64,000 nt of DNA from sequence record OQ174504.1. One strand, written 5' to 3'. Position numbers and translations under genes: made by a program. Below are positions 8,040 through 50,824 of the stretch, piece by piece. Position 1 is the first letter of the stretch. Each line of letters starts with the position of its first letter. The notes beneath the pieces were generated by a model. The model did not search any database. It saw nothing but the letters and a program-made list of their open reading frames with translations, and had not been told where the DNA came from. Source of the stretch: Escherichia phage REP5.

Positions 8040-8332
8040 TGAGTAAAGTACAGGTTATTTTCCCTATTTGTGACTTCTCACTAGAGCGTGAACTTGACCT
8101 GTACGAAGAAATTACTGACGAAATCATCTGGTCTGTTGTAGAAGAGGCTATCAAGAAACTGTATGGTGGCCTCTTAAATCCATCAAGTAAAAAGCTCACT
8201 ACTAAGCAAGTAGCTGATACGTACACTTCATATGATGCCTACAACAAGCCTTTTGAGAACACCTGCTTTGACCTTATGGTAGGTAATAATAAAGTCAACT
8301 ATTTCTTCGTCAGAGAGTTTAACGATGAGTAA
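8039..8332 (+). CDS. Hypothetical protein
   Basis: 97 aa ORF, start overlaps previous stop. Confidence 0.55.
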   Translation: MSKVQVIFPICDFSLERELDLYEEITDEIIWSVVEEAIKKLYGGLLNPSSKKLTTKQVADTYTSYDAYNKPFENTCFDLMVGNNKVNYFFVREFNDE

Positions 8333-11370: not shown

Positions 11371-11400
11371 TTAAGAGCCTCCTTAATTGGGGGCTTTTTA
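11371..11400 (+). terminator. Rho-independent terminator
   Basis: Hairpin agcctcc..gggggct followed by ttttt. Confidence 0.5.
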
Positions 11401-11459
11401 TTGAGTAAAATTTACGAAATTTATATTTTTTATAAAATTTTATCGGTTGTCCCAACCTC

Positions 11460-12640
11460 TGGGTCACCATCATATGTGAATAAAAATATCTATCCTTCTT
11501 AACAACCTTCTTAATCTTACTCTCTATATATAGTTATATAGTACTATATAGTATCTTAGTATCTATCTAGTGGTCTTAATAGCCCTCTGTATAAGCCTTC
11601 TAACAAGCCCTCTAACAATCCTTCTAAACACTCTTCTAACAAGCCTTCTTAACAACCTATACAATCACCTTAACCATCTCTCTATACCCTCTTAGAAGCT
11701 CCTATACACCTCTTAATCTCTAGGTTACCTGTGTTACTTAACAGTAACCCATTATGTCAGCTATGTTACCCTCTATAGGTGTTCACTAGGTATTACTAAG
11801 CCTCTATATAGACTGTTTTAACAAACTTAACAGGAATATCTTTACAGACCTTATCTCACAAGGTCTAACACGGTACTAACAAGGTATCTTATAAGCCTGT
11901 TTATGCCTGTATTTTTAAAAGACTGTCTAGGTAATTATTCAGAATTTTAAAATTTTTATAAAATAGGACTATCAAGTCATTTTTTAGGGTCTTTGAAGGA
12001 ACTCAAAAATATCTGTAGAAGATGTATATCTGCTTGGTAGCCCTTAACAGCTCCCTTACAAGTACTTTGCAAAATTTTAAAATATCCTTAACAATCTCTT
12101 AACAACTCTCTCAAGCTTTTAACATCTCTTTAGAGGTCTTAACAGATTCTTAACAGAACTAACAAGGCTGTAACAAGTTCTTAACAGTCAATACATGGTC
12201 TTTACAGAGTCTTAACAGATGACTAACAAGAGCTAACAAGTTAATTTTTAAGAGTTATTTTGTTAAGATAATTAACAAGTTCCTAACAAGTGTTTAATCT
12301 TTTTAACAAGCTATTAACATGGTCACTATCTCTGGTCTTATCGTTCCCTTTCTTTCTTAGTGATTCTCTAAACATACCTCTTAAAAGCCCTCTATAGCTC
12401 TTTGTAAGCTCTTTTAAGCCTCTTCCTAGTAATTACACCCCAACTATACAGACACCTATTTATAAGGCTTTACAGGAGCTTTAAAGGCTATGTCAAAGAC
12501 TCTTACAAGGCTTTTACATGATTTTAACAGAGATTTAACAAGGGGCTAACAAGTCTCTAACAAGTGCCTTAAAAGCATAACTATGTAGGGATTGTTAAGA
12601 AATTGTTAAGAAAATGTTAAGGGGGCTAGCATTTACGTAA
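11460..12640. repeat. Non-coding array of dispersed short repeats, consensus YTAACARG (more than 25 copies)
   Basis: No ORF of 60 aa or more; cttaacag / ctaacaag recurs every 10-40 bp on the plus strand; AT-rich. Confidence 0.7.
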
Positions 12641-13020
12641 CTTTTAAGCTACTTCAAAGTAACTTTATAGCCCCTATAACATACTTTTAAGACACTATCA
12701 AGCCCTTTTTAATAGTTCACAAGATAGCTAACGAGATGATAAAGCTTACACCCTTATAAGGTTCTTTTAAGGCTCTAGAAAGCTCTATAAAGGGCTTTTT
12801 AAAGGGAGTTAATGCAATCCCTTAAGTTGGGTTGATAAGGCTGTTATAGGGCTTTATAGAGCGTTTAAATGGTTGCCCTTCCCTTTCGGGTTATGGGCTT
12901 ATATTTAAGTTGATTTGATAAAAGGCTATAGGGTAGACTATAGAGTTATTGCTTTTTAAGGTCTGATAAGATTCTGGAAAGGAAAGGGAAAGGGTTGTAT
13001 AAGGGATTTGATAAGACGTA

Positions 13021-18106: not shown

Positions 18107-18195
18107 TTTTGAATCTCCTAGTTTAAGGTTAGTTAATAAAGCTCTTTATCTGGGGCTTAAGATACCAACTTTTAAGCCCCCTGTAAAGTACTTTA
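18107..18195 (-). promoter_or_regulatory. Type B regulatory cassette
   Basis: Copy of type B unit. Confidence 0.5.
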
Positions 18196-18402
18196 TTAGA
18201 TTTCGTAGTAGTAAACTGCTGTCTGTCTTATGTGCTTTCTTGTGATTCTCGTAAGGTAGCAATTAGAATTTATAGCCGTTTCTACATGGTTGCAATAGTC
18301 AGTTTCTGATATCCTAGTCCATACGTCACAAATTTTCATGTAGAAACGTTTTACATCTGTATCAACGTTGGTTGTAACCATCAATTCACGGCAGTAAGTC
18401 AT
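18196..18402 (-). CDS. Hypothetical protein
   Basis: 68 aa ORF, first gene after promoter at 18453-18481. Confidence 0.5.
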   Translation of the reverse strand: MTYCRELMVTTNVDTDVKRFYMKICDVWTRISETDYCNHVETAINSNCYLTRITRKHIRQTAVYYYEI

Positions 18403-18452
18403 TTTTCAGTTCTCCAGTTTAGGAAGTGGGCTTGTCGCCCCGTCTGATGCAG

Positions 18453-18481
18453 ATACTATAAAAACCCGTTCAAGGAGTCAA
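18453..18481 (-). promoter_or_regulatory. Sigma70-like promoter (-35 TTGACT, 17 bp spacer, -10 TAGTAT)
   Basis: Read on minus strand: TTGACTccttgaacgggtttttaTAGTAT, AT-rich upstream. Confidence 0.5.
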
Positions 18482-18653
18482 TAAAAATTTTAAAAATATT
18501 TTTGGCAAAAATGTAATGAAACGGGCGCACGCGACTACCACAAAACAGAACTACAATCAAGAATTATTTTTCAATCCGCTACAAATTTTTATGTTGACTT
18601 TTCTTTTCAGATGTGGTAGCCTCGTGAGAAATGGCGACATCCCCACCTACACC

Positions 18654-18841
18654 CACCTACCTGCACAATTCTAAAATGATTTTTCTTGCCCGACCTGATT
18701 TTTATCTGCACGTTTTGAAAATGAAAAAGCTCTTTGGAGATTACCTGCACAGTTTGAAAATGAATTTTCTCTTTGGAGTTCAAAATTCTCTCTACAGATT
18801 TCTCTATAGAAATCTACCTGCACAATCCTGAAATGAAAAAG
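18654..18841. repeat. Four direct repeats of about 22 bp (consensus TACCTGCACARTTYTRAAAATGA), iteron-like
   Basis: Copies at about 18654, 18704, 18745 and 18815 in a non-coding interval upstream of the promoter. Confidence 0.6.
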
Positions 18842-18909
18842 CCCTCCTTACCTGAAAAATTTACCAGATAAGAAAGGCTTAACCTATTGTGAATATCCTA
18901 CAGAGTTTC

Positions 18910-19695
18910 TTAGTTATTTGCGTCTAAGAAGGTAACTTCTGGTGAAGAGAAGATTGCCCCAATATCCTCATCAGTTCTTGCATAGATGTAGGCATCTGCA
19001 TCACTGCCAAATGTTACTGCAATCCTGTGATTGCTCTTCGACAGGTGGGTAACTAGAGCGTTACTTAGAGACATCTTTTCAACCGGAGGGTTACTTTGAT
19101 GTACCTTACCTTTTCTTCGTCTGAAGAGGGTAACTGCATTATCTGAGAACACTGCTACGCCTGCAAAGTATTCTGGTTCACAGTAGTTCTTCCAACCTGA
19201 GTGTAACTCATTATACATTTTTGCTTCATAGACATACAGATAAACATCTACACTCTTCATTGCCTGATTAATGATAACTGTGACAGCTTGAGGGTCAAGT
19301 CCACCGATACCTGCGCCAATCATAGGTAACCCAACTTTCTTCAACTGATTAACTTCACAGTATCTGTTAAGTTGCTTCAAAGATGACTCTAAAGCACTGT
19401 AACGGGCATCTTTACCAGTCTTAAGCTGAGTGTAAAGATTAGCTATACGACCTTGTTTTAAACGCGCTACAGAGAAATTACCTAGTAAATTTTCACAGGG
19501 TTTGTGGCCTATACCACCTGCATACAGATAAACTTCTGTATCGGTCTCATATGCTTTTGGGTAAAGTTTAGAAATCTTAGCAGCGATACCTGCACCCATT
19601 AAGTTCATACAGTTGCAACCGTGACCAATGATATCAAACTTACCCTTATCAAATGCGGAGAAGATATCCCCATTGATGATTTTTACAATACCCAT
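18910..19695 (-). CDS. Macro-domain protein (ADP-ribose binding/processing) with C-terminal extension
   Basis: 261 aa; INGDIF..DIIGHGCNCMNLMGAGIA and GLPMIGAGIGGLDP resemble macro-domain glycine-rich motifs. Confidence 0.6.
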   Translation of the reverse strand: MGIVKIINGDIFSAFDKGKFDIIGHGCNCMNLMGAGIAAKISKLYPKAYETDTEVYLYAGGIGHKPCENLLGNFSVARLKQGRIANLYTQLKTGKDARYSALESSLKQLNRYCEVNQLKKVGLPMIGAGIGGLDPQAVTVIINQAMKSVDVYLYVYEAKMYNELHSGWKNYCEPEYFAGVAVFSDNAVTLFRRRKGKVHQSNPPVEKMSLSNALVTHLSKSNHRIAVTFGSDADAYIYARTDEDIGAIFSSPEVTFLDANN

Positions 19696-50567: not shown

Positions 50568-50824
50568 GTAAGCCTCTTTTAAGTAACTATTAAGTTTTAA
50601 TCTTTTATCTTAACGTATTCTATACGTTATACTTTAAAGCTTTTTAAAAGCTATTAAATAATCTTTTAAGAGTTTTAAAGTATCTGTATAGTTAAACTGT
50701 TAAGTAACCTTTTAAGTAAAAACCCACTTCGCAAAGATTAACACCTTGTCAAGTGCATTGTCAACTTGCTTTTTATAATTTTTTGCAGTAATGTATGAGG
50801 TTAATGATTTTAGAGGGAGTAAAA

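Follow-up and report, generated by a model that had tools for sequence, protein, structure and literature searches.

A conserved array of bipartite direct repeats in a gene-free gap bordering the terminal small-gene block of Felix O1-type phages

The 64,000-nucleotide stretch of Escherichia phage REP5 DNA analysed here (OQ174504.1, referred to as the window) belongs to a Felixounavirus and is 99.4% identical to Escherichia phage REP6 over the 1.7 kb queried. It contains a 507-bp gene-free gap (18403–18909) in which a short sequence is repeated several times in one orientation, and the question raised by this locus is what role such an array plays. The first-pass annotation had described four iteron-like direct repeats upstream of the promoter of a small-gene block, and offered activator sites, repressor sites or replication iterons as possibilities. 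The genes around the array run on the minus strand, and the order along minus-strand transcription is the stop of the macro-domain gene (18910), terminator, repeats R4 to R1, a variable cassette, a TTGACT hexamer, a conserved block, an A+T-rich tract and the small-gene promoter. From left to right in the window the features are as follows.

18196–18402: 68-aa ORF, downstream flank of the gap.
18403–18452, minus strand: 5′ leader with a small hairpin and the Shine-Dalgarno site of the 68-aa ORF.
18453–18481, minus strand: sigma70-type promoter of the small-gene block, TTGACT-17-TAGTAT; both hexamers are conserved and the spacer varies.
18482–18520, no strand: 87% A+T tract between back-to-back promoters, 138 bp from R1.
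18521–18593, no strand: conserved non-coding block, CGACTACCACAAAACAGAAC ... AATCAAGAATTATTTTTCAATCCGCTACAAATTTTT; identity 0.71.
18594–18622, plus strand: putative promoter aimed into the array, TTGACT, 17 bp, TAGCCT after TGG (extended −10).
18600–18657, no strand: variable cassette between the invariant TTGACT and R1; identity 0.52, the lowest in the gap.
18658–18679, plus strand: repeat R1, TACCTGCACAATTCTAAAATGA; core identity 0.90 across eight genomes of four genera.
18703–18724, plus strand: repeat R2, TATCTGCACGTTTTGAAAATGA; core identity 0.89.
18742–18763, plus strand: repeat R3, TACCTGCACAGTTTGAAAATGA; absent from three-repeat variants (finno, BPS17L1, L049, L077).
18796–18815, no strand: palindrome with an 8-bp stem, AGATTTCT-CTAT-AGAAATCT, in the long R3–R4 spacer; partly conserved.
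18815–18836, plus strand: repeat R4, TACCTGCACAATCCTGAAATGA; shares bases with the T-tract of the terminator upstream; core identity 0.88.
18839–18880, minus strand: intrinsic terminator of the macro-domain gene operon, a 17-bp stem followed by TTTTTCATTT; equivalent to Felix O1 t13.
18910–19695, minus strand: macro-domain gene (261 aa, annotated 'phosphatase'), upstream flank of the gap.

The presence of four direct repeats upstream of the small-gene promoter was borne out. With the motif corrected to (TAC)CTGCAC-N8-AATGA and up to three mismatches allowed, four units are found and 0.06 are expected from shuffled sequences. All four are 22 nt long (TACCTGCACAnTTnTnAAATGA) and lie on the plus strand, starting at 18658, 18703, 18742 and 18815 of the 64-kb window. 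The spacing given earlier as 40–70 bp measures 45, 39 and 73 bp from start to start, with gaps of 17–51 nt between units, and the 23-nt consensus given earlier (TACCTGCACARTTYTRAAAATGA) contains one A too many and has no match even at three mismatches. Each unit is bipartite, reading on the plus strand as a near-invariant CTGCAC (YTATGCAC in some lineages), 8 bp, and a near-invariant AATGA; it is trailed by an A5/T5 tract and then by a lineage-specific 8–10-mer (GGCACGAG, TGTCACATCG, GGACTAACGAG or CTCCAAAGAG). A search for the same repeat elsewhere, which the first-pass annotation had proposed as a check, found no further good copy in the 64-kb window, even with a looser core pattern, and in the complete related genome GEP101 the strict core occurs at the array locus and nowhere else.

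A sensitive blastn search with the 507-bp gap matched 288 phage records, among which the Erwinia phages (Kolesnikvirus) align over R1–R3 only. In a footprint alignment of eight genomes from Felixounavirus, Suspvirus, Mooglevirus and Kolesnikvirus, pairwise identity is 0.88–0.90 for the R1, R2 and R4 cores compared with 0.45–0.6 for the spacers, and among 67 distinct units the information peaks at TGCAC and AAATGA. The position of the array is common to these four Ounavirinae genera, and its architecture is of four units at 45/39/73 bp, three units at 45/75 bp with R3 missing, or four units at 39/37/37 bp in the Erwinia phages. Distant relatives were found as metagenomic contigs through homologues of the macro protein, which is only 33–45% identical in them, and these carry four to six units of the same bipartite motif (TCAT(W)T-N7/8-GTGCA on the coding strand), evenly spaced at 47 bp in L082 and L085. 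Orientation and layout are the same, with a terminator, the array, a further non-coding stretch and the next small gene, and in two of the loci a UP/sigma70 promoter can be read before that gene. In the single full-length distant contig, about 13 small genes follow the array and lead to a TGTTAA-rich terminal non-coding region. Several extra genes intervene between the macro gene and the array in three distant contigs, and one does in L083, which argues that the array goes with the terminal small-gene block, whose border it marks, and not with the macro gene. The array persists even though the DNA on either side of it is mosaic (a macro allele of 42% identity on one flank and variable downstream genes on the other), and it is the most strongly conserved non-coding sequence at the small-gene-block border. 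A scan of IMG/VR for two adjacent units returned only Ounavirinae-size contigs plus seven other matches; all seven were read or aligned, and they are tail-fibre-like coding repeats or do not align to the gap.

Other short repeats accompany the array in the distant relatives. Several copies of CTGGTTG or GGCTGAG precede its terminator (L084 3585–3665; L082 5600–5650; L085 2600–2660), and the terminator–array interval of L083 holds extra repeat families (GTTACGAAGCTGGGGT in three copies and CCAGAAACGC in five). We also note that in the Erwinia phages and the distant relatives the YTATGCACW half of the unit is one to two mismatches from the DnaA-box consensus TTATNCACA (e.g. L082 5770–6010, L084 3780–4035 and L007 2460–2592), and that one L082 unit is a perfect TTATGCACA. 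The counterpart of this half in the window is ACCTGCACA, which is at least three mismatches from a DnaA box.

The remainder of the gap is variable in several places. The ~57-bp cassette at 18600–18657 is of a form we call type B in the window, whereas a G-rich type A of about the same length is present in Felix O1 and others; these two unrelated cassettes, one a G-rich polypurine sequence and the other the window version, alternate among close relatives. A second two-state patch lies in the R1–R2 spacer at window 18690–18702 (GATTTTTAT or GAGCGGGGT in our alignment A3). The two patches assort independently, indicating frequent recombination within the gap. The terminator has compensatory changes among relatives, and its Felix O1 equivalent, t13, is the strongest terminator listed for that phage, with a dG of −21.8 (PMC3185647).

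The TTGACT-17-TAGTAT promoter that had been placed at 18453–18481 is present on the minus strand and matches 9 of 12 consensus positions. The promoter scan as a whole barely exceeds the shuffle expectation (39 found and 28.6 expected), and trust in this promoter comes from its conservation in relatives and not from the scan. The four repeats lie 177–383 bp upstream of its −35 hexamer (18481–18476). On the plus strand, the TTGACT at 18594–18599 is invariant among the sequences covering the site and the TA of the −10 nearly so, although the −10 is poor in type A and in most genomes; the Erwinia phages have TTGACG-18-TATACT, a near-consensus promoter in the same orientation. The putative promoter at 18594–18622 would point into the array, and the conserved block at 18521–18593 is possibly its UP-like region. 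The tract at 18482–18520 ranks among the least stable 0.3% of 40-bp windows in the 64 kb and is a candidate UP element, DNA-unwinding element or both, although regions at 11.4–12.3 kb and 50.6 kb are more extreme. The invariant plus-strand TTGACT, the overlap of R4 with the terminator, the deep conservation and the location of the array at the inner border of the terminal small-gene block are additions to the first-pass annotation.

We conclude that the array is probably a selected, DNA-level set of protein-binding sites. This reading of the sequence comparisons is suggested because the motif is asymmetric, bipartite, in one orientation and confined to one locus per genome, because the cores are kept while spacers, copy number, spacing and flanking genes change, and because neither a coding nor an RNA-structure signal is seen. 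The three to six same-orientation sites would be bound by a sequence-specific DNA-binding protein encoded by either the phage or the host. On one side of the array there is always an intrinsic terminator, and on the other the first sigma70 promoter of the terminal small-gene block. Among the roles offered in the first-pass annotation, footprinting thus favors a DNA-level binding array in general, while regulation of the named promoter is disfavored by the distance and by the confinement of the motif to this place, and an iteron or origin function is compatible with the data only. Operator or activator sites of the small-gene promoter are not favored in particular, as none of the repeats is within ~100 bp of it, the interval from array to gene looks similar in the relatives read by eye, and each genome has the motif at a single locus. 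The possibility that the units contain tandem sigma70 promoters was rejected, the −35 and −10 candidates seen by eye being inconsistent between units and not conserved, and the familiar motifs for IHF, Fis, OmpR, PhoB, the marbox and Type I restriction sites did not fit by inspection.

Our leading specific guess, offered tentatively, is that the array is an iteron-type origin or replisome-loading site. The bound protein would open the DNA for the T7-type primase-helicase of the phage, and opening could be helped both by transcription from the flanking back-to-back promoters and by the neighboring 87% A+T tract. An origin role is favored because a unique cluster of direct repeats beside an A+T-rich tract and early promoters resembles phage and plasmid iteron origins, with T4 oriE as a formal parallel. 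The origins of lambda and of the plasmids R6K (gamma), F, P1 and pSC101 have three to seven same-orientation, asymmetric sites of 17–22 bp that are unique and near an A+T tract and promoters, and the array resembles them here, with an A+T tract that is also a plausible UP element; where iteron origins show three or more same-orientation repeats of ~17–22 bp at a single locus, the window has four of 22 nt and its relatives have three to six. Classical iterons, however, are contiguous with a ~22-bp pitch compared with the 37–75 bp of the array, they lie beside or inside the initiator gene, and they usually come with DnaA or IHF sites, none of which was found at the array. In iteron replicons the rep gene adjoins the iterons, whereas searches of the flanking proteins against Pfam, PHROGs, PADLOC and PDB sequences found no initiator-like or DNA-binding domain and returned only a DarG/TARG1-like macro domain. 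The sole HTH protein found is of the Cro/CI type and is far from the array, and the genes flanking the array vary between lineages. There is no DnaA box (TTWTNCACA) within one mismatch in the window array. It is the lack of a linked initiator gene and of a DnaA box, the spacing unlike that of iterons, and the existence of a region at 50.6 kb that is at least as good that keep the origin role tentative.

T4 oriE is the closest of these parallels in setting. Its direct repeats lie at even intervals and it requires an early promoter, although its iterons were never tied to origin activity (PMC3016281). Like the array, it is a unique cluster of short direct repeats in the non-coding DNA of a lytic myovirus, syntenic in relatives and beside an early promoter for the host polymerase (PMC3016281). 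The T4 repeats are 12 nt long with repEA and repEB nearby, whereas the array units are 18–26 nt, bipartite and 37–75 bp apart with no linked candidate gene, and the two share no sequence similarity.

Two other regions of the window are candidates for an origin. The divergent intergenic region at ~50580–50700 lies at the minimum of cumulative GC skew, is of very low duplex stability and contains a 21-bp tandem repeat (50642–50685); in a related annotated genome, the divergence matching ~50.6 kb lies between the DNA polymerase and the primase-helicase unit. We regard this as an alternative candidate at least as good as the array. The non-coding 11.4–12.3 kb region, with its less stable DNA, is a further and better-looking candidate.

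The main rival to the origin role is that the array is a boundary or regulatory element, in which a bound protein would either block or insulate transcription in a polar manner past t13 or act from a distant upstream array to time the small-gene block or the plus-strand promoter, and we consider this unlikely. The order of terminator, array and small-gene promoter is the same in every lineage, the array keeps one orientation with respect to transcription, and in the window R4 overlaps the T-tract of the terminator and R1 is ~28 bp downstream of the predicted plus-strand start. Timing data are available for Felix O1, in which a 70-aa 'ORF14' was called across R3–R1 and gave RT-PCR RNA that was maximal at 25 min, compared with 5 min for the flanking ORF13 and ORF16 (PMC3185647). 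ORF14 (8042–8254 in the Felix O1 record) corresponds to window ~18783–18571 on the minus strand, and the array region is thus transcribed on at least one strand, possibly with distinct timing, although the assay was gel-based and not strand-specific. Against a boundary role, 177–383 bp from the small-gene −35 is beyond the usual range of activation or repression at a sigma70 promoter, the motif is missing from the other promoters of the genome even though other small genes seem to be individually promoted, and in distant relatives the array begins 90–280 bp past the terminator and so is not tied to it.

We note a likeness to the T4-type 'PeSL' cassettes and to the 57-bp and 39-bp repeats of Felix O1, which are also repeated non-coding modules and, in Felix O1, occupy the same small-gene region. 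The sharing of the terminator T-tract by R4 and the recombinational mosaicism of the region are further points in common with such promoter–terminator cassettes, but these recur between many genes and are explained as a promoter plus a hairpin, whereas the array motif is at one locus and has neither a promoter nor a hairpin of its own. Terminator-like hairpins with embedded promoter-like hexamers lie between small genes at window 18134–18198 and in similar gaps throughout 12.7–18.4 kb; these correspond to the Felix O1 57-bp and 39-bp repeats, and they resemble the mobile promoter–stem-loop cassettes of T4-type phages.

An RNA-level role, with the repeats transcribed from the plus-strand promoter or by read-through and acting as part of a non-coding RNA (e.g. 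one that soaks up an RNA-binding protein, or that mimics a ToxI-like type III antitoxin cut at AAAU motifs), is improbable. The conserved TTGACT is aimed into the array and is part of a near-consensus promoter in the Erwinia phages, the region is transcribed in Felix O1, and likely anti-defence genes are abundant nearby, including that for the DarG-like macro domain. ToxN-type nucleases cleave at A-rich sites resembling AAAU, and the units of ToxI are 36 nt long; a unit length of 37–47 nt with an invariant AAAUGA in each bears some likeness to these. However, RNAalifold found no conserved pairs or covariation over the repeats on either strand and supported only the minus-strand terminator, the plus-strand fold of the array is no better than that of shuffled sequences (z = 0.16), and no Rfam family, including any type III antitoxin family, matches the gap at E≤1. 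The 45/39/73 spacing and variable spacer sequence within one array are also unlike the precise tandem repeats of antitoxins, and the plus-strand −10 is poor in most genomes. A ToxI-like antitoxin or phage mimic was rejected, as constant tandem length, whole-unit conservation and a fold are all lacking.

The next alternative depends on where the genome ends are. Felixounaviruses have short exact terminal repeats: that of phage Pr103Blw is 581 bp (PhageTerm) and that of UAB_Phi87 is 608 bp (Bal31 and run-off sequencing). Window 12036–12626 (minus strand) is a 92%-identity homologue of the Pr103Blw direct terminal repeat, and on this basis the physical ends probably map there. The block of small genes extends as far as this inferred terminal repeat. 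The surrounding non-coding DNA at ~11400–12700 is packed with repeats of the TGTTAAGA/CTTGTTAG type, several at an 11-bp period, and holds the least stable DNA of the window.

With the ends in this position, the array could be a cis-acting hold or stop signal for genome entry like that of T5, or a broader polar barrier, marking the inner limit of a terminal 4–6.5-kb 'first-in' host-takeover module that enters and is expressed first, and we judge this very improbable. It would work through a membrane- or DNA-bound host factor, for which DnaA is one candidate given the YTATGCACW half. In T5, first-step transfer covers 7.9% of the genome and halts at iss, an untranslated site rich in repeats whose conservation exceeds that of the neighboring ORFs, and DnaA boxes are a feature proposed for it. 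The array is similarly a cis region ~8% from a genome end that outconserves the adjacent small early genes; the inferred terminal repeat has its inner edge 6.0 kb and its outer edge 6.6 kb away from the array (~7–8% of the genome), and in Felix O1, the window and L087 the array bounds a terminal small-gene block of 3.9–5.8 kb. The segment from array to end holds only small, individually promoted genes without assigned function, and the GTGCATAG half of the units in Erwinia phages and distant relatives differs from a DnaA box at one or two positions, with one perfect TTATGCACA. However, iss lies inside a 10-kb terminal repeat and has inverted repeats, palindromes, eight DnaA boxes and a demonstrated two-step entry with A1/A2. 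Two-step entry is not reported for any Felix O1-type phage in the literature searched, the block length varies (~3.9 kb in Felix O1 and 5.8 kb in the window), the window repeats are at least three mismatches from a DnaA box, and DnaA does not explain the AATGA block. If true, an entry stop would extend two-step entry, so far known only from T5-like siphoviruses, to an unrelated myovirus lineage.

That a small protein is encoded over the repeats is more doubtful still. The candidates are the plus-strand ORF at 18631–18831, Sf13 gp58, Michonne gp98 and, on the minus strand, ORF14 as called in Felix O1; both strands carry open reading frames, annotators have called genes there, the spacings of 45, 39 and 75 bp are multiples of three, and the Felix O1 RT-PCR was positive. 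However, among 24 close relatives the variable columns fall 14/12/17 over the three phase classes, with no third-codon-position excess in any of the six frames, and the frame over the array is broken by a 2-nt deletion in wV8, a premature stop in VpaE1, and a stop after R2 with a frame switch in Mooglevirus. Spacings of 73, 41, 37 and 37 bp are not divisible by three, there is no conserved start codon or ribosome-binding site, and ORF14 has been dropped by RefSeq. The view of the first-pass annotation that the ORF at 18631–18831, which is present in the window, merely translates the repeats is supported, and ORF14, Sf13 gp58 and Michonne gp98 are probably not genes, which would correct those annotations. 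A CRISPR mini-array or solitary CRISPR repeats were also rejected, with units of 22 nt and gaps of 17–51 nt compared with repeats of 28–37 nt and spacers of ~30 nt, and no CRISPR-DR match in the array.

Least probable of all is a terminase recognition or genome-end element (pac- or cosB-like): several public records and metagenomic contigs start or stop inside the gap (KhF1, Andreotti, FSL SP-107 and four IMG/VR contigs) and lambda cosB has repeated terminase-binding sites, but the annotated terminal repeat of Pr103Blw maps ~6 kb from the array, the 6568-bp SpeI fragment of UAB_Phi87 that holds the large non-coding region fits the Bal31-sensitive bands (4322 + 2819 − 608) and excludes the array, and the contig ends in the gap are artefacts. 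The artefact-bearing sequences ending in the gap are L015 (at the locus end), L014, L021, L003 (1–130) and L004 (1–23). In L015 the terminal sequence is a Nextera adapter joined to the G-rich tract, and L021 is chimeric, being fused to the start of E. coli mukB; the KhF1 record has N-rich, duplicated or redundant ends, and at the start of the Andreotti record the sequence beside R2 is present as an inverted copy.

The searchable literature yielded no account of these repeats and none of an origin or transcriptome for a Felixounavirus; the Felix O1 genome paper listed repeats only if they were at least 24 bp and called an ORF across the array (PMC3185647). An iteron-like array in phage non-coding DNA is a familiar kind of element, and this one is new, deeply conserved and experimentally tractable. 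Phage engineering by recombineering or Cas9 has already been carried out genome-wide in the Felixounavirus Bas63. Phages of the Felix O1 type are widely used in Salmonella typing, biocontrol and therapy, and the array may bear on their replication origin, early-gene control and the role of the terminal small-gene block. Four 22-bp sites are a compact mutable target for asking where replication starts, how the terminal block is switched on or insulated, and which protein reads the sites.

The gene upstream of the array, although annotated as a phosphatase, encodes a macro-domain protein (18910–19695, minus strand) that matches the DarG antitoxin model (E = 3.5e-14) and TARG1/OARD1 structures, with an extra C-terminal part of ~100 aa of unassigned fold. 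A weak Rfam match to CRISPR-DR57 inside this gene (19098–19134, minus strand; 22.7 bits against a gathering threshold of 39, E = 0.088) was taken as chance. The protein is a candidate for counter-defence against DNA ADP-ribosylation by DarT. Two alleles of the macro gene that are only 42% identical circulate among close relatives.
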